Positions 411 through 29,820 of a stretch of 64,000 nt of DNA are shown piece by piece. The position numbers and the translations under genes were made by a program. Source of the DNA: a virus (taxonomy: Duplodnaviria > Caudoviricetes). The first letter of the stretch is position 1. Every line of letters begins with the position of its first letter. Below the pieces are notes generated by a model. The model was not told where the DNA came from. It saw only the letters and a list, made by a program, of their open reading frames with translations, and searched no databases. The stretch covers positions 5,055-69,054 of IMG/VR virus record IMGVR_UViG_3300050587_000151; one strand, given 5' to 3'.

Positions 411-3400
411 CTACGCGGCAAGCAAGCCTTGCTGGTCATCTAGCCTAAGCAGCTTGCACGCACCCCAAGAGTCGGTTGAATACTTAATCTCCACACCAAG
501 AGCAAAGCCGTCAAGCTCGTCCCAAGGCTGGGTCATGATGGCCCGTAGACCGCGGGCAACGTCAAAGCGTCCTTCGTGCGGTCCCATTGCGACAAGCTCG
601 TCATGAACTTGAATAGCGAGCCGCCAAGGTGCCGGTAGCGCATAGGTTGCTTTGAGACCAAGCTCCGCGATCTCGTTAGCAAAGCGCTCCGGATACAACG
701 CAATCATCATGCGCAACACAACATCTGCAAGCGTGCTGGCCGGCAGGAAGGCAAGAGACTTTGTTGCGTAGTCTCTCGAATTATGAGAGTACATACCTTC
801 AACCATTAAAGTTTCGGTTGAGGTACCAATAGCGATTACTTCATTTTTGCCAACATGTCTAATGCTGGTTACTGTTGCTACCTCCCCATAACTTAAGTAG
901 TCGAACGCAGGCTTGTTTTCCCATAGCTGGGGGGCTTTTTGTAAAAAGCGTTCTGGACGCAGGCGCCCAATTATTTCTAATGCTGATCGGGGAGAGTTTG
1001 CATATAAACGAACCCCACGCACCTCTCTCGTTCCAACATGGCGTGGTTCTGTAGTTCGTAATCCTAACTCATTAGCTATATTGATAGCTTTATCCAAAAT
1101 AATACCGGGATTCTGACTAAACGCAACGATCCCTCGTTTCCAACGGGAATCCAAATGACCTTCACCATCTAGAATTCCAGCTAACCATACGGCATCTCGT
1201 GATGGTTCTGTTCTCCAAGGAGGAGCAAAATATATGATCTTGTCGCCCGGCCTCAGGTACTCTGTACTGATCCACCGATGCAAGAATTTGCCTCCACGTC
1301 CGCCTTTTACTTGTAATCGTGTAGCCCATCCGTGTCTTGCAGTAGCCCGTACAACACCTTTATCAGTTTCAAGTTCATATATATCCGTTTCGAACGGATT
1401 AACACACGTTACTATAGAGCGACGAAGCTTTGGATGGTCAAGATGCTCGTCAAATCCAATTAGTTCATCACCAATTTTAAGGTCGCCCATGGGTGTCCAA
1501 GTTAAGTCTGCTTTTAAAGCACGGGTCTCAGGAGGATTACATTGGAACCACCGACGCCTGCCAAATGGGTTGCAGAGATACCCTTGCCTTCGTACAAGCT
1601 CTACGACTTCGTCTTGCCACTGCGCGGTACGGGTGTTGCGTTTTGCCCAAATTTCAAACATTTCCCGTATATCGGCAACAGTGTAGTTGTAGCCTTCTTC
1701 GGCAAGGTACATGCGGGCAGTCTCGACGCCTAGGCCGTAGTTCTTGCCATGGTTGACAACCTTGCCCGGCGCTCGAAGGTGCTCTTCTACCCCGCCTTTC
1801 GACACAAGCTCAATTGGCTTGTTGAAGAACAAATGCGCCATGTCAGAGTGCTCATCGTAGCCGGGGGTACGCAGCCGCTCAAGTCGTTCGTGGTCTTGGG
1901 CAAGCCACGCGGTGAGCATGTTTTCGCCTTGCACGATATCGGCGCTAAGGATGCCCCATCCTGGGTGGTCTGGCACAAAGATTTTACGAATGACCTTGGG
2001 CTGGTTTTGGATGTTGGGATCTATGCCCCGACGCTTGCCGCTGCTTGACAGCCGGCCTTCTGACGTGCCGTGCACAAGCAGGTTGAAGTACACCCGCGAG
2101 GTTTCAAGCAGTCCCGGCTTTGCGAACGAGTTGCGCTGCGTAACAAGCTTCTTGAGCGTATCGACAAGCGTGAATTCGGTATGGTGACGGCCCCAGGATT
2201 TGCGGGCGCTCTTGTCTGCTGTGACACGCTTGGTTTTGTGGTTCAGTTTGTCTTCGCAGCCAATAGCTCGTGCGTAGGCAAGCACTTGTTGGGAGGAGTT
2301 CCAAGGCACAACGCGTTCGAAAGCTTGGATCTTAATACGCTTAAGCTTGGCCAGCTTTCCGGAGTGCAGCCATTCATTGCAAACAGGGCAATGTTCGTAG
2401 CCAGGTGTAGTGAAGGTTACCTCAACTGGGGCATGCAGCGTGCCCAGCTTTCTTTTGCCTTTGCACTTGCGGGTCTTGGGTTTGTACGTATCCGGCGGGG
2501 CTTCGACTTGCTTGATAACAGGCTCGTCATAAGGCGCAAGACCGTCCGGCAGCTTGACCTCCAGCTCCGCAATCTGCTTTTCCAAATCGACCCGGATGTC
2601 TTTGACTCGTGAGTTGTCGATGCGCAGTCCGATATCCGTGATGTCCCGGCAGATATAGGCAACTGGAACGCTAACCAATCGATATACTCGTTCCATGTCA
2701 TACTTTCGTAAGGTTGCCTGTAACGGGCCAGCACACTGAAAGCTGCCCTCAGTATCGCGGGCGTTGTAGAGACGATACGCTTCGTCTGCGGAAGCACAGC
2801 CTCCGTAGCCACCAAACTCTCGCGGCAACGCATCCGACCGATCCCAGGTACGCCATTGGGCACCGGCGGGCAACACATTCCCTTCGGCGTCCTCGGTCTC
2901 CTCGCCTTTGCCTTTCCAGAAAACCTTGCTGCTGAAGACGCTGGCAACGAAGCCCAAGTCATGCTTCATGTCCGGCTGTACAAGATGCTGAATGAGCATC
3001 GTGTCAACTAGCTCAGCATTGACACGCCAGCCAAGGCGTTCGAAGTGCCTGGTGTCCGCCCCTACGATGTTATGGCCGATAAGGATCTTGGCATTTTCGA
3101 AGATACGCCGTAATTCGTCAACAAACGGTGGCTCCCACGGTACGACAATCGCATGGTGGTAGCGATCGCACAGGCCACATAACGTGATCTGGCCCCACGC
3201 ATCCCACTCAAAGTCAAACGCAAAAGTTGTGGCATTGAATGCCCGCACGTCCGCAAGTGAGGGGTAGAGATTGTAATACTCAGGTGGGATGGTTGGTTGC
3301 CGCCGCAGGTCGCCAACCGCCACGCTGAACAGTCCCGCGTTGCGCATGAGGTAGGCAGGGTGCAAGGTCGGCACAACCTGTGGGCCGTCTGCCGTACGAT

Positions 3401-3959
3401 GTTTCAACGGCAGCGGCGACCCGCGCCAGATAAGAATGCCCTTGCGAGACGTGAGCGCTTCAAGCGCTTTGTCGCCCAACGCGACAATACGGCTCCACTT
3501 ACGGCCATCGACAGCGGGCATCAAATGGCATACCCGGCAATGCTCAACCGCCGCAAAGCCGTCTGCGCGAGTGCTGGTCTTGCTGGGCAGCTCCGCCAAC
3601 GCAGCCTCGTAGGCTGCGTAGTCTTTGCGCCTGCGCAGCTTTTCGGCTTCTTCGGTCCAAAAGGCTTGCACAGCCTCGGGCCAGTTTGGCTCGGTAGGAA
3701 AAACATTGGACGGTGGCCGACACCCAAGACAGTTTACAATGCTGATACTGCCCCGATTGATCTTCGCGGCCCGCAGCATGCTGTTGAGCCAAGTACCGGC
3801 ACCGCCGACAAATGGCTTGCTGGCTAACGCTTCTTCCTCGCCTGCGGCTTCGCCTACGAATAGCTGGGTGCCGTAACCTTGTGCAAGGGGCACATAACCA
3901 CAAGTTACGCCAGCTATCGGGCAATCTCCACAAAACTTCGGGCGCTGGCAATTACTCAT
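411..3959 (-). CDS. polA: DNA polymerase family A with N-terminal family-4 UDG-like domain, 3'-5' exonuclease and an intein
   Basis: UDG motifs FVGEAAGEEE, GGAG, NCLGCRPPSN, PTLHPAYL. Exonuclease motifs FDFEW, GHNIVGAD, YNARD. Pol motif A SADIVQGE, motif B KVVNHGKNYG, motif C IQVHDELV. Confidence 0.95.
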   Translation of the reverse strand: MSNCQRPKFCGDCPIAGVTCGYVPLAQGYGTQLFVGEAAGEEEALASKPFVGGAGTWLNSMLRAAKINRGSISIVNCLGCRPPSNVFPTEPNWPEAVQAFWTEEAEKLRRRKDYAAYEAALAELPSKTSTRADGFAAVEHCRVCHLMPAVDGRKWSRIVALGDKALEALTSRKGILIWRGSPLPLKHRTADGPQVVPTLHPAYLMRNAGLFSVAVGDLRRQPTIPPEYYNLYPSLADVRAFNATTFAFDFEWDAWGQITLCGLCDRYHHAIVVPWEPPFVDELRRIFENAKILIGHNIVGADTRHFERLGWRVNAELVDTMLIQHLVQPDMKHDLGFVASVFSSKVFWKGKGEETEDAEGNVLPAGAQWRTWDRSDALPREFGGYGGCASADEAYRLYNARDTEGSFQCAGPLQATLRKYDMERVYRLVSVPVAYICRDITDIGLRIDNSRVKDIRVDLEKQIAELEVKLPDGLAPYDEPVIKQVEAPPDTYKPKTRKCKGKRKLGTLHAPVEVTFTTPGYEHCPVCNEWLHSGKLAKLKRIKIQAFERVVPWNSSQQVLAYARAIGCEDKLNHKTKRVTADKSARKSWGRHHTEFTLVDTLKKLVTQRNSFAKPGLLETSRVYFNLLVHGTSEGRLSSSGKRRGIDPNIQNQPKVIRKIFVPDHPGWGILSADIVQGENMLTAWLAQDHERLERLRTPGYDEHSDMAHLFFNKPIELVSKGGVEEHLRAPGKVVNHGKNYGLGVETARMYLAEEGYNYTVADIREMFEIWAKRNTRTAQWQDEVVELVRRQGYLCNPFGRRRWFQCNPPETRALKADLTWTPMGDLKIGDELIGFDEHLDHPKLRRSIVTCVNPFETDIYELETDKGVVRATARHGWATRLQVKGGRGGKFLHRWISTEYLRPGDKIIYFAPPWRTEPSRDAVWLAGILDGEGHLDSRWKRGIVAFSQNPGIILDKAINIANELGLRTTEPRHVGTREVRGVRLYANSPRSALEIIGRLRPERFLQKAPQLWENKPAFDYLSYGEVATVTSIRHVGKNEVIAIGTSTETLMVEGMYSHNSRDYATKSLAFLPASTLADVVLRMMIALYPERFANEIAELGLKATYALPAPWRLAIQVHDELVAMGPHEGRFDVARGLRAIMTQPWDELDGFALGVEIKYSTDSWGACKLLRLDDQQGLLAA
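780..1541 (-). mobile_element. Intein (254 aa) with LAGLIDADG homing endonuclease, inside polA
   Basis: Begins CNPPET after GRRRWFQ, contains WLAGILDGEG, ends MYSHN followed by Ser(+1). The segment is visibly more AT-rich than its flanks. Confidence 0.93.
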
Positions 3960-4141
3960 TCGCTAGCAAGGGCCTCTGGCACTGCCTCCCACGGCTGCCG
4001 GTCGTAGCACAATACTGCATTCAGAAAACACGACTCATCACCAATGTCAACGCGGTTCTGGCCATGCTTGCCACATGCCGCACATACCCACACCTGGCCA
4101 GGCGGAGCGTTGTACTTTGTCTTCCAGGTTTTGTCTCTCAT
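3956..4141 (-). CDS. Small Cys-containing hypothetical protein
   Basis: 61 aa with WVCAACG; overlaps the polA start in ATGA-type coupling. Confidence 0.65.
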   Translation of the reverse strand: MRDKTWKTKYNAPPGQVWVCAACGKHGQNRVDIGDESCFLNAVLCYDRQPWEAVPEALASE

Positions 4142-4344
4142 TTGTCATCCTTGACCTTGTTGCTGCTGCTTGTTGCGCCATAAACCACAACTCCGCACAA
4201 CACAAGCACTGCGATACCTGCGATTACTGGTAGGAAATCCAAATTCGGGGTCCCTCTGCCATGTCGAAAAGACGGGCAGCCAAGTTGCCCTGGCTGCCCA
4301 ATAGTGCGGATATCAACTAACGTGCCCCAGCACTCGTTACTCAA
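4138..4344 (-). CDS. Small membrane protein
   Basis: One hydrophobic segment (LPVIAGIAVLVLCGVVVY); coupled to its neighbours. Confidence 0.6.
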   Translation of the reverse strand: MSNECWGTLVDIRTIGQPGQLGCPSFRHGRGTPNLDFLPVIAGIAVLVLCGVVVYGATSSSNKVKDDK

Positions 4345-4807
4345 TCACAGGCGCGGCCGACCACCAATCAACATCGTTATCGATGGTATTGGGGTCCCTG
4401 CGATCCGGGCGCTCGATTGCCTTAAGACGCAAGGTCGGCTGCTGCTCGCTCAAGGTTGCAAGCCATGCGTCAAGCGGCGTGCCCGGCTCCTGCGCAATAC
4501 CCGTCGCGTCCATCACGCGCCGAAGTTTCTTCAGTGCCGATGGCCCGCTAAACAACGTCGGGAAGATTCGCCGACCAGCAAATTCCGGATGGTCCGTAAC
4601 CGCAAGATTGAACTTCACAAAGCTGTCAGGCGTGCCAGCAGGCACCCCCTTCTGGTTGCCTTCCTTGTACGCGAAGTGCCGCAGCTCTGCCTTGAGAATC
4701 TTGAATGTGTAAAACTCACCGCCGGGAATCGGCCTAAAAGTCGGGTCGATCTCATTGAGATCAACATACTCAAAGCCAACCGACGATTCACTAGTAGCAG
4801 TGTTCAA
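4337..4807 (-). CDS. DUF669-like single-stranded DNA-binding protein
   Basis: YTFKILKAE...VKFNLAV...FAGRRIF pattern; GGAGG Shine-Dalgarno before a TTG start; adjacent to the Sak4-like ATPase. Confidence 0.7.
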   Translation of the reverse strand: MNTATSESSVGFEYVDLNEIDPTFRPIPGGEFYTFKILKAELRHFAYKEGNQKGVPAGTPDSFVKFNLAVTDHPEFAGRRIFPTLFSGPSALKKLRRVMDATGIAQEPGTPLDAWLATLSEQQPTLRLKAIERPDRRDPNTIDNDVDWWSAAPVIE

Positions 4808-4988
4808 TTATTGCCTCCAAAGAATTCGTGGCAAGTGGTCGTCACAAGCAACAGCCGGCCACGGGCGCCTGCTGCCTGTCGTCGCTATGAAAGAAGATCG
4901 TCATCGTGGTCTTGCCAAGCGATAAGCAGCCAACCACAGACGATGCAAAATGCAATTGCTAAAGCTAGGGTCATGATGTGTACCCTTC

Positions 4989-5837
4989 TTATGCTGCAAT
5001 AGGTGCAGCAGTCGTGAATCTTGGGACCCAGTACTTTTCCCAAATGACACTCATGTCAAGCGGCCCCTCTGCCGGAAAGCAATGCGTGCGGTCGCCAAGC
5101 ACCATCACACCGTCGCCTTCGGTGACTAGCACGCGGTCGTTGACCCGGCATGGCTTGTTGTCCTCGCCTCGCACAACTCGTGTTTTGACCTTGATGGTGC
5201 CGACGGTCTGGAACATCGCGGTTGCGGTGTCCGCCATCGCACCGGGCAGGTCGGGGTGAATCTTGATAATGTTGCCATTGTCGTCTGTGCGTTCCTTCAG
5301 CAACGCGGTGACGATGAGATGCTTGCATAGCTTTGGATCGGGATTACATGTCAACGCAATCAGGCTGTTGAGCAGCTTTCGCATCTCCTCGCCCATGGTT
5401 TGATAGTCATCACGAGCGGGCACACCAGCCTCGCGTCGTGGATCACGCATTTTCGACGGAAACTTAAGCGCATAAGGTTTAATAAAACGATTTACAACCT
5501 CGGTGGAAGAGTCAAGCACCACACCACCGTAGTTTTGGTCGCCTACAAGACTTGTGATGATTGCTCGCAGTTCGTTGAGGCTTTGGGGTATCACGACATC
5601 CACGCCAAACTCCTGAATGGACATCGTGCCCCCACCTTTGCCGGCCTCGCAAGCAACAAACAATGCAGGCTTGCCCAGTGTGTCCTTGCACAGTTTGTCG
5701 AGTGTTGCGCCAAAGGTCGTCTTGCCATACTTGCCAAGCGCGTAGACCAGCATACATATCCGCGTGTCGGGCGTGATGAGGCGGGATGTGTTGTGGATCG
5801 GTACCCCGCCAATTGACGTAACAGCCATAACTAGCAC
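4989..5837 (-). CDS. AAA_24 / Sak4-like ATPase (single-strand annealing recombinase)
   Basis: Walker A-like ALGKYGKTT, Walker B VVLDS, LIVTA; sits between an SSB-like gene and a nuclease. Confidence 0.8.
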   Translation of the reverse strand: MLVMAVTSIGGVPIHNTSRLITPDTRICMLVYALGKYGKTTFGATLDKLCKDTLGKPALFVACEAGKGGGTMSIQEFGVDVVIPQSLNELRAIITSLVGDQNYGGVVLDSSTEVVNRFIKPYALKFPSKMRDPRREAGVPARDDYQTMGEEMRKLLNSLIALTCNPDPKLCKHLIVTALLKERTDDNGNIIKIHPDLPGAMADTATAMFQTVGTIKVKTRVVRGEDNKPCRVNDRVLVTEGDGVMVLGDRTHCFPAEGPLDMSVIWEKYWVPRFTTAAPIAA

Positions 5838-5847
5838 TCCTTGTTTG

Positions 5848-6054
5848 CTAACGATTCAAATGCCAAGATTGTCTGCGAGCGTAAAGTTCATAAGGCGTTG
5901 GATGGCCAGCGGCCTTACATTCTGCTACACAAAACTCCTCAGCGCACTTGTAGCCGCGTTGGTAAGAATCCCAACACCTCTTATGCCAAGGCGGGTTACC
6001 GCTTCGAGACTGCCAGAAGAACAACCGATTGCTACAGCCACCACATCTAGGCAT
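5848..6054 (-). CDS. Small Cys-rich hypothetical protein
   Basis: 68 aa with CGGC; fills the gap between coupled genes. Confidence 0.5.
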   Translation of the reverse strand: MPRCGGCSNRLFFWQSRSGNPPWHKRCWDSYQRGYKCAEEFCVAECKAAGHPTPYELYARRQSWHLNR

Positions 6055-6391
6055 AGCGTGCCGAACGCTCTAGCTCAAAAGCAGCCTGACACTCGTCACA
6101 GCGGGTTTTATACCAGCCAGTACTACGCAAAATGCCAGGTGCTCCGCAGGTCTCACAAACTTGAAAAGACTCCGCTTCGGCTTGGTTGATTCGGTCGAAA
6201 ATCGCGTTTGAACCTCGTCCGACGTAGAAGCGCAAGCCGCCGAATTTTTCTTTGACTTGGGCGACTGTGCCATCCCAGCCAAGAGCTAGCAAATCGTCAA
6301 CAAGCTTTGCAATAATGGCATGCCAGCCTTTGCCTACCTGTGCTTGCAGGTCTTCAAGCGTTGTAGAGTTACCTGTGTATAGCCATTGCAT
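6047..6391 (-). CDS. Conserved phage hypothetical protein (QVKEKFGGLRFY family) with CxxC pairs
   Basis: Contains QVKEKFGGLRFY, CETCG and CDEC. Start moved to ATG 6391 because the longer ORF overlaps tRNA-Pro. Confidence 0.75.
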   Translation of the reverse strand: MQWLYTGNSTTLEDLQAQVGKGWHAIIAKLVDDLLALGWDGTVAQVKEKFGGLRFYVGRGSNAIFDRINQAEAESFQVCETCGAPGILRSTGWYKTRCDECQAAFELERSARYA

Positions 6392-6495
6392 GATGAGTTG
6401 TCCTGTGTGGGGCCAGGTGCCACTACGCAACCCCTGGCCCCGTGGCGGGCGCGGCTTGTAGGCCAATAGACCCAGTTGCCACTCGCCCCCGAAGG

Positions 6496-6569
6496 TCTGG
6501 ATGGGAGGATTCGAACCTCCGACCTCTCGCTCCCAAAGCGAGAGCACTACCGGGCTGTGCTACATCCAG
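6496..6569 (-). tRNA. tRNA-Pro(UGG)
   Basis: Acceptor CTGGATG/CATCCAG, D stem GCAC/GTGC, anticodon arm CTCGC-TTTGGGA-GCGAG, T arm GGAGG-TTCGAAT-CCTCC. Followed by ACCT, so CCA is incomplete. Confidence 0.95.
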
Positions 6570-6686
6570 TAAAGGGTGACTATTAACTTGTATTTTTGGG
6601 GATGTCTACAAGTATATCAAATCAAAGGCTTTAACACAAGCCAAGTAGGTGGTTTGTGTACAGTAACCATGTGCTACCACGCCCTG

Positions 6687-7715
6687 CTACGCAACCTCCA
6701 ACCCCACATACCGCGTTGCATCCCGATGCTCCATTGAGGCATCTTCGGTTGTTGGCAGGTCGTAGGTGTGGTTTCGAAAATATGCACACGGGCCGTACTG
6801 CGGGTGGACGCATGCCTCGCGGTTGGGTGGGCGGCGGTACATGCTCAGTCCTTGTGCCGCAAGATGGGCCATTTGCCATGCAACAGAAGTTATTTCGCCT
6901 AATGCTCGGCTGAGCCGTTCCTGCGAACGTATGACGCCTAGCCGGTAGAAAGCCGGCATTGGTTCTGCCTTTGGCTCGTAAGGCTTGAGAGTTTGTCGGT
7001 TGCCACACAAGGGGCACGCATGTTGCCCGTCACCTGTCGGCAGCCATGAAGCAAGCTCGACAGTCTCCTGACAGCCTTTGCATTTACGCTTCGGTACATA
7101 GGTGCGGGGCTTTTCGAGAACCTGGACAATCATGCCTGCTGGTGGTTCACCAAGTTTTGCCTGAAGCGCAAGCATCTGGAAGTCCGCTTGCATGTTTGAC
7201 TCCCATGCCATTGCGTAGTTGGCCCGGCTGATAGCTGCGGACTTGGTTTTATATTCGTGTATCCACCAGCCAGGAGCAAGGCTTAACGCCTCCCCCTCGA
7301 TACCGGTCTCAACTGCCGTTTGCTCCGGTACGTAGAAATACTTGTCAACCTTTGCAAGGCCAGTAAGGGGCGCCCTACCAAGCAGCGGAAACTTCAACGG
7401 CTCTTCGCAAAACACCATTTCCCATTGCTCAGCCGGGTAGCGGCGAGCGTATTCGATAACCATACCGGCTGCGAGTGCCAGTGTGTCAGGGGTTGGGTTG
7501 ATCTCATCAACGGTTGCCTGTGACACGTTGGGTAGCTGATTGCGAGTCCAATTCTCCAGCCCTGCGTGTACCAAGCTACCGATTGCCATGTTGTCATCTC
7601 TAGGTCGATCCTTTCGTCGTGGCGCAAGCTCATTGACGTAGGTCTCGTACCACAGCCACGGGCATCGAACAAATTTGAGGTACTGTGAATAGTCAATAAA
7701 TGAAGGTTGTGTCAT
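6687..7715 (-). CDS. PD-(D/E)XK nuclease (RecB/Cas4-like exonuclease) with zinc ribbon
   Basis: N-terminal DYSQY..F..CP, KVDKY, IHEYKT, KCKGC...ACPLC and C-terminal Cys residues. Confidence 0.85.
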   Translation of the reverse strand: MTQPSFIDYSQYLKFVRCPWLWYETYVNELAPRRKDRPRDDNMAIGSLVHAGLENWTRNQLPNVSQATVDEINPTPDTLALAAGMVIEYARRYPAEQWEMVFCEEPLKFPLLGRAPLTGLAKVDKYFYVPEQTAVETGIEGEALSLAPGWWIHEYKTKSAAISRANYAMAWESNMQADFQMLALQAKLGEPPAGMIVQVLEKPRTYVPKRKCKGCQETVELASWLPTGDGQHACPLCGNRQTLKPYEPKAEPMPAFYRLGVIRSQERLSRALGEITSVAWQMAHLAAQGLSMYRRPPNREACVHPQYGPCAYFRNHTYDLPTTEDASMEHRDATRYVGLEVA

Positions 7716-7915
7716 TAGTGCTCCATTACACACGCCGCGATAATTGATACGGCCACGGCGAAGGCACCACATGCACCTGCCAGCGGGTTAGCGCAAGTCA
7801 ACCATGTCAGCCCTACCACAATTGCGACTCCTGCGGTAATGACTGCTATTGCAGCAAGCGCACCTAGCGCTACCCTTACCCACGCCTCGGTGAAGTTCTT
7901 TATCCATCTATGCAT
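7715..7915 (-). CDS. Small two-TM membrane protein
   Basis: Two hydrophobic stretches; stop overlaps the next start (TAATG). Confidence 0.6.
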   Translation of the reverse strand: MHRWIKNFTEAWVRVALGALAAIAVITAGVAIVVGLTWLTCANPLAGACGAFAVAVSIIAACVMEH

Positions 7916-8460
7916 GGTGTTTCCTGTTCCACATAACCTGTTGCCTCGTCTGGCAACCGCCCGCCATGCCAAGCTAGTGCCCGTCGTTCCCACGACGGGT
8001 ATTCATACACTTCCCGGCTCTCGGGCAGCACAAAGACCGCTTCGCCTTGGCGCACATGGCTGTCCAGCCATGCAAGCTGCCTGCCGATCAGCTCACCCGC
8101 CGGCAAGTCAGTTTGCCATACAAAGGACTTTTCCGCACAAAGGTCAGACGCGGGCCGAGCAACTAGTGCCTCGGCCGCCGCTGCATCATCTTGTAATGCT
8201 GGCCGGCCGGGCACCGGCGCCCGCCGCCTTGCCAGCTCGACCGCTTTGCAATTCGGGCACACAAGCGTCCATGCGCCGCTGCCTACATGGGCCAGCACAT
8301 GCAGGTAGTGCTTTTCCCGCCGCTGGCCTGTGTGGCTTTGCCAGTCATTGCCCTCGACCCGCATGACCTGCAACGCACCAGGCCACTCCGACCAGCCACA
8401 CTTGGCGCACTTGTTGCCCAGCGCTGCGAGTACTCGGTGGCGAAGCTCAGTTGCTGACAC
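7900..8460 (-). CDS. HNH-like zinc-binding protein (catalytic His apparently degenerate)
   Basis: LGNKCAKCG...LQVMRV...LVCPNC resembles the HNH scaffold, but the usual DH dyad is absent. Confidence 0.55.
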   Translation of the reverse strand: MSATELRHRVLAALGNKCAKCGWSEWPGALQVMRVEGNDWQSHTGQRREKHYLHVLAHVGSGAWTLVCPNCKAVELARRRAPVPGRPALQDDAAAAEALVARPASDLCAEKSFVWQTDLPAGELIGRQLAWLDSHVRQGEAVFVLPESREVYEYPSWERRALAWHGGRLPDEATGYVEQETPCIDG

Positions 8461-8580
8461 GTTAGGTGTCGCTCCTCATTCGCAAGGCATGTTGTGGTCC
8501 GAAAGATGAGTACAAATTGTGGACAAGGACAGGCAAGGCGCTGGCTGTTGCATTTTGCAACACGCGTCCCGCTGCCAATT

Positions 8581-8741
8581 AAATAATTTCCTTCTATATA
8601 TCTTCTTGATATATAAGAAGATATACAAGATAGAAAAATAAATAATTATTTCATGTCGGGTGTACAGTAATGCAGCGAGTGTACAGTAAGGGTGCCTGTA
8701 CAGTAATGCATTGGAAGCATAGAGAATAATTATTTATTTTC
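8581..8741. repeat. AT-rich inverted-repeat/iteron cassette, copy 1
   Basis: Hairpin TATATCTTCTT/AAGAAGATATA (8597-8625). A 16-bp inverted repeat (8635-8650 / 8725-8740) encloses three TGTACAGTAA copies (8661, 8680, 8697). Confidence 0.85.
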
Positions 8742-8900
8742 TGAGGGGAGGCCGGCACAATAGCAAGGCCCAGTATCCTCGCCAAGCGGCCACCCACACC
8801 AGGGGCACTTTGGCTTCGCGGCGCACCGCCAACAAACCCCAATTTCTCGCTCGTCGTCGAAGTCAAGGGTGCCGGCGCAGAAATCACAGTAGACGTACAT
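8730..8900 (-). CDS. Small zinc-finger protein
   Basis: 56 aa with CDFC, CWRC, CPWC, CYC; GGAG Shine-Dalgarno before ATG 8900. Confidence 0.65.
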   Translation of the reverse strand: MYVYCDFCAGTLDFDDEREIGVCWRCAAKPKCPWCGWPLGEDTGPCYCAGLPSENK

Positions 8901-8915
8901 GACTAGCTCCCAACT

Positions 8916-8990
8916 TGGCAGGGCACCCAGGATTCGAACCAGGATCGCCGACTTTGGAGACCGGCATTCTGCCAATTAAAATAGTGCCCC
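8916..8990 (-). tRNA. tRNA-Trp(CCA)
   Basis: Acceptor GGGGCAC/GTGCCCT, loop CTCCAAA, TTCGAAT T loop, encoded G-CCA end; one T.T mismatch in the T stem. Confidence 0.9.
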
Positions 8991-8993
8991 GTG

Positions 8994-9072
8994 TGGTGGG
9001 GTAGGCGGGATTCGAACCCACGAATCTCCGGGTTGAAGGCCCGGCGGCTTGAGCCAGCTTGCCCACTACCCC
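8994..9072 (-). tRNA. tRNA-Glu(UUC) with atypical C33
   Basis: Acceptor GGGGTAG/CTACCCC, anticodon arm CCGGG-CCTTCAA-CCCGG, TTCGAAT, encoded CCA. Confidence 0.85.
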
Positions 9073-9074
9073 AC

Positions 9075-9145
9075 AGCCAAGGACAGGATTCGAACCTGCA
9101 TCTTGGGCATTACAAATGCCCGGCTTTGCGTTAAGCTACCTTGGC
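9075..9145 (-). tRNA. tRNA-Thr(UGU)
   Basis: Acceptor GCCAAGG/CCTTGGC, anticodon arm GGGCA-TTTGTAA-TGCCC, T arm GCAGG-TTCGAAT-CCTGT; short D loop lacking GG; no CCA. Confidence 0.88.
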
Positions 9146-9150
9146 ATGAC

Positions 9151-9575
9151 GACAACCCCCGGTACGAGAGTTGTCCAACTTGGCGAAGAGGAGTCGGCCC
9201 CCGCCGAAGGCACACATCCGTCCACCCAAAGACAAGCTAGCCACCCCAACCCTGCCGGCAATACGTTTGGGATACACACTCAGCTTGCCTCGCTCCTCTT
9301 CAAATTTGATGGGACCAGCAAGACTCACACCTGCTACATTGGGGGCCTCGCCGCTACGTATCGACGTGTCCCGCACGATTGCTCGTAAGCTCGATTCTTC
9401 GCTTTTGGTCCCGAACTGACGCAGGGTACGGATTTCCGCCGTTGGACTTTCGCAAGCAAGAACTGCTCCCGCCAGCAGCGCCCTTTGGATAGCGTGGTCC
9501 GCCACGCCCTCCAACACGTTTACCGACAGTTTGCTTTGCGAGTTCGCCTGTCACGATCCTGCACAAAACTTGTTG
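9151..9575 (-). ncRNA. Candidate large structured ncRNA upstream of the tRNA cluster
   Basis: Three consecutive closed domains (GCAGG/CCTGC; GGGACCA/TGGTCCC; GAAGAGGAG/CTCCTCTTC+GCCA) with GNRA-capped hairpins, then an 11-bp hairpin. No convincing ORF. Confidence 0.6.
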
Positions 9576-9577
9576 CC

Positions 9578-9826
9578 CTACATAACCCGGTCGCCTTTGA
9601 TCTTGATCTCAAACTCTTCCGCAAGCCGTGGCTCGTAAGCATCAGCGCATTCCAGGTTGGTGCAAATCATGATGCTGTTCTCCGTCCACTCAAGCGAGCA
9701 ATCATGCGCCCCGTTGAGCATCGTCTCCCACGCCTCAGGCTCGTCGGTTGGCTGTACAAGCCGCGCCCATGCTTCGACCACCACTTCAAGATGATCGGCA
9801 GATTTGCATGTTGGGCATTGCCACAT
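9578..9826 (-). CDS. Zinc-finger hypothetical protein
   Basis: Starts WQCPTC; C-terminal CTNLEC. Confidence 0.65.
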   Translation of the reverse strand: MWQCPTCKSADHLEVVVEAWARLVQPTDEPEAWETMLNGAHDCSLEWTENSIMICTNLECADAYEPRLAEEFEIKIKGDRVM

Positions 9827-10047
9827 AAGAACCTCGTGTGCTTACCACCGATTGTAGCCATGTAGCTTTCGATGCCATCCTAGACTACAAACACAGCATC
9901 TGTATTCCCATTCTTGATCGGCTTCCGCCTTGCGTCATGCGTACCAAGAATGCACAAAGTAACACCAACAGCCGACAACGCCTCGTACCGTGTCAGCTAG
10001 CATTTCCCAAATCCAGCAATATCTCATTGTCGTGCTTCACCTGTCCC

Positions 10048-11172
10048 TTACACTGCTGTGCCAAGCGCCACAGGCTCTCCTGGGCACGGTCGCCCACGAG
10101 CCGCCGCCTCCTTGGCAAACACCAGCTCCTGGGCTTCTGCGTCAAAATCAATCACTACCCGCTCGCCTGCCTCGACTTGCGCGGTCGCAATCAAATTGGC
10201 AATCGACTGGATGATGCTTTTCTCGACTGCCCTGCGAAGCTGGCGGGCGCCATACTTCATGTCTGTGCCATTGGCTAGGATATGCTCTTTCGCAGCAGGG
10301 CTGACAATCAGGCTGATTGCCTTTGTTTGCACGATACGCTCGTAGGCAAGACGCAGCTCGATTTCCAAGATTTGTTCAAGTTCAGGTTTGCCGAGCGGCT
10401 TAAAGACAATTATCTTGTCCAACCGATTGATGAATTCCGGCGTAAACTTGCGCCGCGCTGCCTCAACGCCGGCCTGCGAGATCTTCGAAGCCAGCTTATC
10501 GTCCATCGGCGTCGAGGCGCCTGTTGACGGCTGGGCAAGAAATCCCAGCCTTGGACTCAACAAGTTCGCCATCTCCCGCGCGCCGAGGTTCGAAGTCATG
10601 AAGATCATCGCTCGTCCAAAGTCAACTCGTTGGCCGTCGCCGAGCGTTAGCGTGGCCTTGTCCAGGATCCCCAGCAGCAGGTTCCACAGCGAATCGCTTG
10701 CCTTCTCGATCTCGTCGAAAAGCAGTATCGACAGCTTTAGTTTGTCGGTATAAAATTCCGATAAACGTTGTTGGCTGAGCATTGGCTTGGTTTCCCTGTG
10801 GCCAAGGTACCCTGGCGGACTGCCAATTATCTTCGATATTTCATGGCTGTGCTGAAACTCCGCGCAGTCAATCTTTATCACCGCTCGTGTGGTGTGAAAC
10901 AACGCGTCAGCGAGCACCTCGACGATCCGGGTCTTGCCCGAGCCGGTCGGGCCGAGAAACAGGAAGTTGCCGACCGGCTTGCCCGGTTGCCCGATCCCTG
11001 CCAAGAATGTCTGGTACACATCCACTATCCCGCCAATCGCGTCGTCTTGGCCAATGATGAAGCTGTGCAGATAACTCGTCAGCTCCGATGCCGCAGTGCC
11101 TACCTTCGACGTGTCTAGGTCAATCAATGGCGGAGAAGTTTTTGCCACAAGTGTCTCCAAAGGAACAAGCAC
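10048..11172 (-). CDS. Single-domain ClpB/ClpA D2-type AAA+ ATPase
   Basis: IIGQDDA, FLFLGPTGSGKT, IDCAEFQHSHEISKIIGSPPGYLG, LFDEIEKA, MTSNLG, FTPEFINRLD, YGARQLRR. Confidence 0.93.
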   Translation of the reverse strand: MLVPLETLVAKTSPPLIDLDTSKVGTAASELTSYLHSFIIGQDDAIGGIVDVYQTFLAGIGQPGKPVGNFLFLGPTGSGKTRIVEVLADALFHTTRAVIKIDCAEFQHSHEISKIIGSPPGYLGHRETKPMLSQQRLSEFYTDKLKLSILLFDEIEKASDSLWNLLLGILDKATLTLGDGQRVDFGRAMIFMTSNLGAREMANLLSPRLGFLAQPSTGASTPMDDKLASKISQAGVEAARRKFTPEFINRLDKIIVFKPLGKPELEQILEIELRLAYERIVQTKAISLIVSPAAKEHILANGTDMKYGARQLRRAVEKSIIQSIANLIATAQVEAGERVVIDFDAEAQELVFAKEAAARGRPCPGEPVALGTAV

Positions 11173-29408: not shown

Positions 29409-29603
29409 AAATAATTTAATCTTCTCTATGTTCTTTATATCTTCTTATATATCAATGATATATAAAGACTATATGAATACTGGAAAAATAAATAATTATT
29501 TGGGACAGGTGTACAGTAAGGGCAGAAAAGTACTAGAGCAAGAGTACTAGTACATTTTGACCCTTACTGTACAAAGAGAGTAGGAAATAATTATTTATTT
29601 TTT
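29409..29603. repeat. AT-rich inverted-repeat/iteron cassette, copy 2
   Basis: 18-bp inverted repeat (29484-29501 / 29585-29602) enclosing inverted TGTACAGTAAGGG copies (29510-29522 / 29561-29573). Shares 19-bp, 14-bp and 11-bp identical blocks with copy 1. Confidence 0.85.
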
Positions 29604-29820
29604 GCAGACTACGGGCAGACAGGTCGAGGGTGCCCCTTTGCCGCCTGCCCGCCAGGGCACCTCGGGCGCCTGGTCCACCGATGCGTGAGCATCCGTGGCA
29701 GCCGGGCTGCCCGAGCCGCTGCCCGCCAGCGCCAGGCTGCCCCCCCCCCCCTGGCGAAAGCGCAAGGGAGCTTTCCTCCCCGCCAAGCTCCCTTGTGCAA
29801 AGATACCGAGCTTAGCAGAC

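Follow-up and report, generated by a model that had tools for sequence, protein, structure and literature searches.

The locus studied here raises the question of what fills the 432 nt (9577-9146, minus strand) lying between a small orphan gene and a cluster of three tRNA genes in a window of 64,000 nt taken from a 69-kb IMG/VR provirus record. In the initial annotation the minus strand had been folded by hand, and a single multi-domain non-coding RNA of about 430 nt was proposed. According to our analysis the evidence supports at most a structured 3' module of about 150 nt, not a multi-domain RNA of 430 nt. We tentatively favour the reading that the gap is a lineage-specific non-coding spacer, at once 3' UTR of the upstream gene ORF82 and leader of the tRNAs, in a polycistronic early transcript that runs from ORF82 through tRNA-Thr, tRNA-Glu and tRNA-Trp to ORF56. 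The basis of this reading is the anatomy of the locus, the missing coding signal, the fold statistics and the non-conservation of the segment.

The minus strand carries every gene between 411 and about 25,700. Read in this direction, the gene of a D2-type Clp AAA ATPase (11172-10048, Pfam AAA_2 and ClpB_D2-small) is followed by a gap of 220 nt, by ORF82 (9826-9578), which encodes an orphan Cys-rich small protein of 82 amino acids with a strong coding signal (0.089 bits/nt), and by the 432-nt gap, extending from the ORF82 stop at 9578 to tRNA-Thr at 9145. Then come tRNA-Thr(UGU) (9075-9145), tRNA-Glu(UUC) (8994-9072) and tRNA-Trp(CCA) (8916-8990). The CCA end is encoded in tRNA-Glu and tRNA-Trp and is not encoded in tRNA-Thr, nor in a tRNA-Pro gene at 6494-6569. 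Directly downstream of the tRNAs stands the Cys-rich ORF56 (8730-8900, read from the ATG at 8900); it starts 16 nt past the CCA of tRNA-Trp and is preceded by a good Shine-Dalgarno sequence (GGGAG), hence the tRNA genes form part of an mRNA operon. Past ORF56 the order continues with an AT-rich repeat region, an HNH-like ORF and a PD-(D/E)XK exonuclease. The sole sigma-70-like promoter site on the minus strand was located upstream of ORF82 (9878-9851) and none was detected inside the 432-nt gap, where the only terminator-like site is a weak 6-bp hairpin (9479-9462). Since the gap and the tRNAs share one strand and no convincing terminator separates them, they are very probably co-transcribed, as the initial annotation had assumed. 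The sequence of the gap is unique within the genome, contains no DNA-level repeats or iterons, and its minus strand consists of 34% G, 24% C, 21% A and 21% T.

A non-coding stretch of 432 nt is long for a phage, and the possibility that the gap encodes a protein had to be considered. Its longest frame, ORF128 (9131-9517, 128 amino acids, GTG start), stays open for 128 codons, its codon log-odds of 0.049 fall at the lower range of real genes (0.06-0.32; 95th percentile of wrong-frame ORFs 0.08), and of the gene callers applied to different copies of the locus two call it. The third, however, picks the opposite strand, there is no Shine-Dalgarno sequence in front of ORF128, and the frame extends 15 nt into tRNA-Thr. 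A 3-periodic Markov model gives it -0.009 bits/nt, under the 5th percentile of true coding sequence (+0.011; wrong-frame 95th percentile -0.018; both from 384-nt chunks), while ORF82 reaches +0.089 on the same model. No Pfam or PHROG family was found for ORF128, its sole match among 5.8 billion proteins is ORF128 itself, and nothing corresponds to it in the closest syntenic relative. None of the other starts preceded by a Shine-Dalgarno sequence in the gap opens a frame longer than 48 codons. The gap is very probably non-coding, and it is very unlikely that it encodes ORF128 or a smaller peptide; in this respect the initial annotation, which treated the stretch as a candidate ncRNA, is supported.

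All helices named in the initial annotation are present on the minus strand at the positions given for them: GCAGG/CCTGC, which closes domain I (9421-9562), GGGACCA/TGGTCCC, which closes domain II (9311-9412), the 9-bp helix GAAGAGGAG/CTCCTCTTC followed by GCCA in domain III (9181-9301), and an 11-bp hairpin (9151-9175). It is another matter whether they exceed what chance would produce. The whole gap folds at -171 kcal/mol, against an average of -161 kcal/mol for dinucleotide shuffles (z -1.64, 5/100 shuffles as good). Domain I, with its 5-bp closing helix and a 7-bp GCGUGG-type hairpin, gave a z of -1.56 and domain II, closed by 7 bp, a z of -1.18, and neither was singled out by MFE frequency or ensemble diversity when compared with the shuffles. 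Domain III reached -2.87 (2/200 shuffles as good), a value that is biased downwards, and hence inflated as a signal, by the choice of domain boundaries at closing helices. The 11-bp hairpin reached -4.20 (0/200) and makes up 75% of its ensemble. The plus strand is weaker throughout, with z values of -1.59 for domain III, -1.33 for the hairpin and -0.14 for the whole gap.

Essentially the same division was seen when GC-corrected 124-nt windows were scanned on both strands of the whole 69-kb genome (9,192 windows). The exact window of domain III has a z of about -2.4, which places it in the top ~1% together with about 100 windows as good, and for domains I and II the windows range from about -1.5 to +1.1. 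In the full-length MFE structure the closing helix of domain I is absent, whereas domain III and the hairpin adopt an identical fold in the full-length MFE and in the centroid. Domain III is moderately well defined, with an MFE frequency of 8.6% and P values of 0.09 and 0.05 for MFE frequency and ensemble diversity, respectively. Thus, of the closed domains described earlier, domain III and the hairpin fold above chance, domains I and II do not, and the closure of domain I is lost in the full-length context. Structure beyond chance is confined to the last ~150 nt of the gap, where it stands out modestly. The GNRA loops and nested stems, which had been put forward as an argument for a functional RNA, are expected by default in a strand that contains 34% G and pairs readily via G-U.

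Domain III is a four-way junction of 121 nt with 44 pairs (22 GC, 13 AU and 9 GU). From its 5' end the 9-bp helix is followed by a 1-nt linker, a long arm of 63 nt, a second 1-nt linker, an arm of 20 nt, a 5-bp hairpin with a GGGG loop and finally the G-CCA end; the 5-bp hairpin abuts the 3' strand of the closing helix and is stacked on it. The leader is single-stranded and A/U-rich (AUCAAAUUU), with U at position -1, and G+1 is paired to C. Bacterial RNase P favours U-1, a G+1:C+72 pair and RCCA. With its G+1:C closure, U-1, 3' RCCA and stacked 5-bp hairpin, all read from the sequence and the MFE structure, domain III is compatible with RNase P cleavage. Additionally, the 3' end and trailer of tRNA-Trp (8910-8919), 265 nt downstream, repeat letter for letter the 10-mer GCCAAGTTGG at 9175-9184, which comprises the discriminator, CCA and a 6-nt trailer; three copies of this 10-mer occur in the window versus about 0.1 expected.

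The gap contains no T-loop (GTTCRA or TTCRANYC), whereas all three tRNAs have one, and the acceptor-plus-T-type branch of domain III measures 9+5 = 14 bp versus 12 bp in tRNA; the topology is that of a cloverleaf without its motifs, lacking both T- and D-loop. At the locus the Rfam tRNA model and ARAGORN detected just the three annotated tRNAs, and neither the Rfam model nor ARAGORN at ps70-80 with introns allowed reported a tRNA at 9181-9301. The relaxed ARAGORN search also ruled out an intron-containing or degenerate tRNA, and an attP-type tRNA fragment was rejected, since no remnant of a T-arm is present. A one- or two-piece tmRNA was rejected as well: the tmRNA mode of ARAGORN was empty even at ps80, no Rfam tmRNA match was obtained, and position 3 of the domain III helix is an A:U pair in place of the required G3:U70. 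Perfect 9-bp helices spanning 60-140 nt and followed by NCCA occur five times in the genome versus about once in Markov controls, therefore this hallmark is not unique to domain III, and the four remaining configurations are at sites unlinked to tRNA genes. At the observed genomic density, the chance that one would fall on the tRNA strand no more than 500 nt ahead of the cluster is about 0.02. The case for a tRNA-style element at domain III is suggestive, not compelling.

Concerning known RNA families, cmscan of the whole window against Rfam 15 at gathering score returned four tRNAs only, and the gap alone, with relaxed filters and E<=10, gave noise (MIR5638 with E 1.4 and sX2 with E 6.2). It matched no GOLLD, ROOL, HEARO, YrlA, group I/II intron or riboswitch model in Rfam, in line with the earlier statement that no class was recognised. 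The phage context near tRNAs is shared with GOLLD and with the Y-RNA-like YrlA, and a Ro60 fragment was noted elsewhere in the genome by the initial annotation, although neither the window nor the gap has an Rfam match to these two RNAs. Intercistronic spacers and leaders of tRNA operons in bacteria and phages carry stabilising hairpins. The gap is like them in position and strand, in its want of ORFs and in having a stable hairpin immediately ahead of an RNase P site, but its 432 nt exceed their usual length. Phage T4 encodes two small stable non-tRNA RNAs of unknown function in its tRNA region, RNA C (species 1) and RNA D (species 2) (PMC3014915). According to the annotation of AF158101 and its folding, they resemble domain III in being structured, on the tRNA strand, beside a phage tRNA cluster and provided with a terminal helix; RNA C, however, has a canonical T-arm (GGUUCGAAUCC) and is located downstream of the tRNAs, while domain III has no T-loop and is upstream of them. 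They show no sequence similarity to domain III, the phage blastn being empty, and the T-arm motif of RNA C is absent from the gap. The t-elements of plant mitochondrial transcripts are tRNA-like processing signals, described as tRNA-style structures in mRNAs that set RNA ends via tRNA-processing enzymes (PMC1920247), the role that may be supposed for domain III and the hairpin. They belong to another kingdom and are closer to real tRNAs than domain III. The allo-tRNAs, non-canonical 8/4 and 9/3 tRNAs of bacteria and phages (PMC5389517), have a 9-bp acceptor-type helix and N-CCA in common with domain III; they are tRNA-sized with a 12-bp acceptor-plus-T branch, while domain III has 14 bp, 121 nt, a 4-nt loop at the T position and no anticodon arm.

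The conservation of the segment was approached from several directions. Blastn against 50,697 phage records and nhmmer against 22 AAA-ATPase loci were empty, as were IMG/VR scans with ORF82, PolA and a 20-mer of the tRNA-Thr anticodon arm; ORF82 matches itself alone among 5.8 billion proteins. A covariance model of domain III, built from its single sequence, found no homologue in the 22 AAA loci, five whole jumbo-phage records, four IMG/VR and 20 metagenome exonuclease loci. In 401 Acidobacteriota genomes blastn gave just two matches of 27-30 nt at loci without a tRNA gene, on which the domain III model reported only noise, and tblastx of the gap against more than 130 loci revealed no pseudogene remnant. 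Logan SRA k-mers led to four DNA runs of one anaerobic-digester study, from which the record may stem, and to no RNA run. The copies of the locus, some of them on contigs of 335-461 kb, are clonal and 100% identical bar one SNP in 7 kb. No homologue turned up in any of the collections covered, JGI metagenome contigs included, and in public data this phage has hardly any relatives.

The nearest syntenic relative is a groundwater contig (L034), in which PolA is 64%, AAA_24 58%, the AAA ATPase 55%, the exonuclease 54% and the HNH-like protein 33% identical; four upstream ORFs (36-43%) are also shared and the gene order is the same throughout. Between its AAA ATPase and HNH-like genes (3834-4921, 1.09 kb) lie one ORF of 124 aa and a Cys-rich one of 58 aa. 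No tRNA is present there, and at neither the nucleotide nor the protein level does this stretch resemble ORF82, the gap or ORF128. The unrelated content of this slot means that ORF82 and the tRNAs, with the gap between them, are lineage-specific and stand at a variable position. A CPWCG motif is the sole thing common to the small Cys-rich ORFs of that slot and of positions 8461-10047 of the window. The neighbouring AAA ATPase, which is of the single-ring ClpB-D2 type, has cellular proteins as its nearest relatives apart from identical copies: the best in the search of 5.8 billion proteins is 66% identical, the named top hits being from Acidobacteriota, and in a genome collection identities of up to 64% were found, mostly in Bryobacterales and other Acidobacteriota MAGs, while viral homologues in IMG/VR are 39-60% identical in the best aligned segment. 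These affinities fit an Acidobacteriota host, and the gene was possibly captured recently.

The 11-bp hairpin closes the gap on its 3' side and is separated by 5 nt from the start of tRNA-Thr. It has a UAC loop and no U-tract, and its interpretation as an intrinsic terminator was rejected on this ground and because a promoter would not fit between it and tRNA-Thr. A role in processing or end protection is the best reading of the hairpin and perhaps of domain III. In the model we prefer, ORF82, the spacer, the three tRNAs and ORF56 would be co-transcribed, and RNase P would cut the 5' end of tRNA-Thr between 9146 and 9145, which would leave an upstream RNA ending 5 nt past the hairpin; the hairpin and the very stable domain III might then block 3'-to-5' exonucleases, so that the message of ORF82 would be stabilised. 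In favour of this spacer are the want of a credible ORF in the gap, the contrast between domains I and II at background and the hairpin and domain III above it, the position of the only promoter-like site ahead of ORF82 and none in the gap, the placement of the tRNAs within an mRNA operon with ORF56 right after tRNA-Trp, and the non-conservation of a segment whose slot in the relative holds unrelated ORFs and no tRNA. Two points sit less well with it: the RNase P and tRNA-end determinants of domain III would be superfluous for a mere spacer, and its length is unusual for a phage.

The same determinants would suit a second reading, a minor though distinct possibility, in which the tRNA-maturation machinery excises domain III, alone or with the hairpin, as a small stable RNA of its own. 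RNase P would cut at U9302/G9301 and 3' trimming would proceed to G-CCA, producing an RNA like T4 RNA C and D or like t-elements, which might be a decoy or a processing signal. The 9-bp helix with its stacked 5-bp hairpin, the A/U-rich leader, U-1, the G+1:C pair and G-CCA, together with the 10-mer shared with the 3' end and trailer of tRNA-Trp, argue for such an RNA, as do the small chance of this placement near tRNAs and the precedents of T4 RNA C and D (PMC3014915) and of plant mitochondrial t-elements (PMC1920247); its fold is better than shuffles and stronger on the minus strand, but the helix-closed boundaries inflate that score and 9 of its 44 pairs are G-U. The missing T-loop, the 14-bp branch, the silence of ARAGORN and of the Rfam tRNA model, the four similar configurations away from tRNA genes and the want of homologues all weigh against it. 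A more specific form of this idea, that domain III is a new phage tRNA-mimic, a T-loop-less 121-nt four-way junction cut by RNase P, ending in G-CCA and released with the three tRNAs, which might decoy tRNA-directed enzymes or defences of the host or be CCA-repaired or charged, is in our judgement quite improbable.

That the gap is functionless filler, brought in along with a tRNA cassette, or decayed sequence, with all of its structure due to chance in a G-rich strand, is unlikely. This view agrees with an orphan sequence in a variable slot, with domain III being just in the top ~1% of about 9,200 windows, with about 17 11-bp hairpins (G-U allowed) expected genome-wide as estimated from pair probabilities, and with the multiple testing implied by 64 kb searched by eye; yet it is precisely at the junction with the tRNAs, and on their strand, that the two best-folding elements are found, with tRNA-type ends, and tblastx shows no gene remnant. 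The least probable reading is the one originally proposed, in which the whole ~430 nt form one novel three-domain RNA. A long ORF-poor gap on the tRNA strand with several GNRA-type loops and no known family is what such an RNA could look like, but the whole-gap z of -1.64 is unimpressive, domains I and II are indistinguishable from shuffled and genomic background in energy, MFE frequency and ensemble diversity, the closure of domain I is unstable in context, and the segment is neither conserved in the syntenic relative nor represented by a homologue in any collection searched.

If domain III is indeed processed, it would add an Acidobacteriota phage to the few cases of unexplained non-tRNA RNAs in phage tRNA clusters, and it would show that no T-loop is needed to build RNase P-type ends. 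To our knowledge, RNA C and RNA D of T4 have been unexplained for 50 years. The main lesson of the present analysis is a negative one, namely that nested stems folded by hand, together with GNRA-like loops, do not count as evidence for a large non-coding RNA when the strand is G-rich.

Several other structured or tRNA-rich segments were observed in the genome and in a further virus. The strongest fold near the gap (z about -4.1) belongs to an AT-rich intergenic block (about 33% GC) at 8570-8740, just downstream of ORF56. It contains three direct repeats, (A)TTACTGTACA, at a spacing of 17-19 bp, which are framed by a perfect 16-bp inverted repeat (8635-8650 / 8725-8740), and an 11-bp palindrome follows at 8597-8625. 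The block could serve as an operator/promoter region, as an origin, or to terminate the tRNA operon. On the minus strand the segment 20660-20860, between a COOH-NH2 ligase-type gene and the next ORF, is strongly structured (z about -4.2, 47% GC). Nowhere in the genome is folding stronger, on either strand (z -5.5 / -5.3), than at 29450-29730, where the GC content is 31-35%; this stretch abuts an also strongly folding segment of 69-74% GC and is located about at the switch of gene orientation from minus to plus. In a 101-kb viral contig (L010, IMGVR_UViG_3300044981_000078), 32 tRNA genes on one strand (2767-10833) flank a homologue of the AAA ATPase, and this array includes two internal gaps of about 1 kb.
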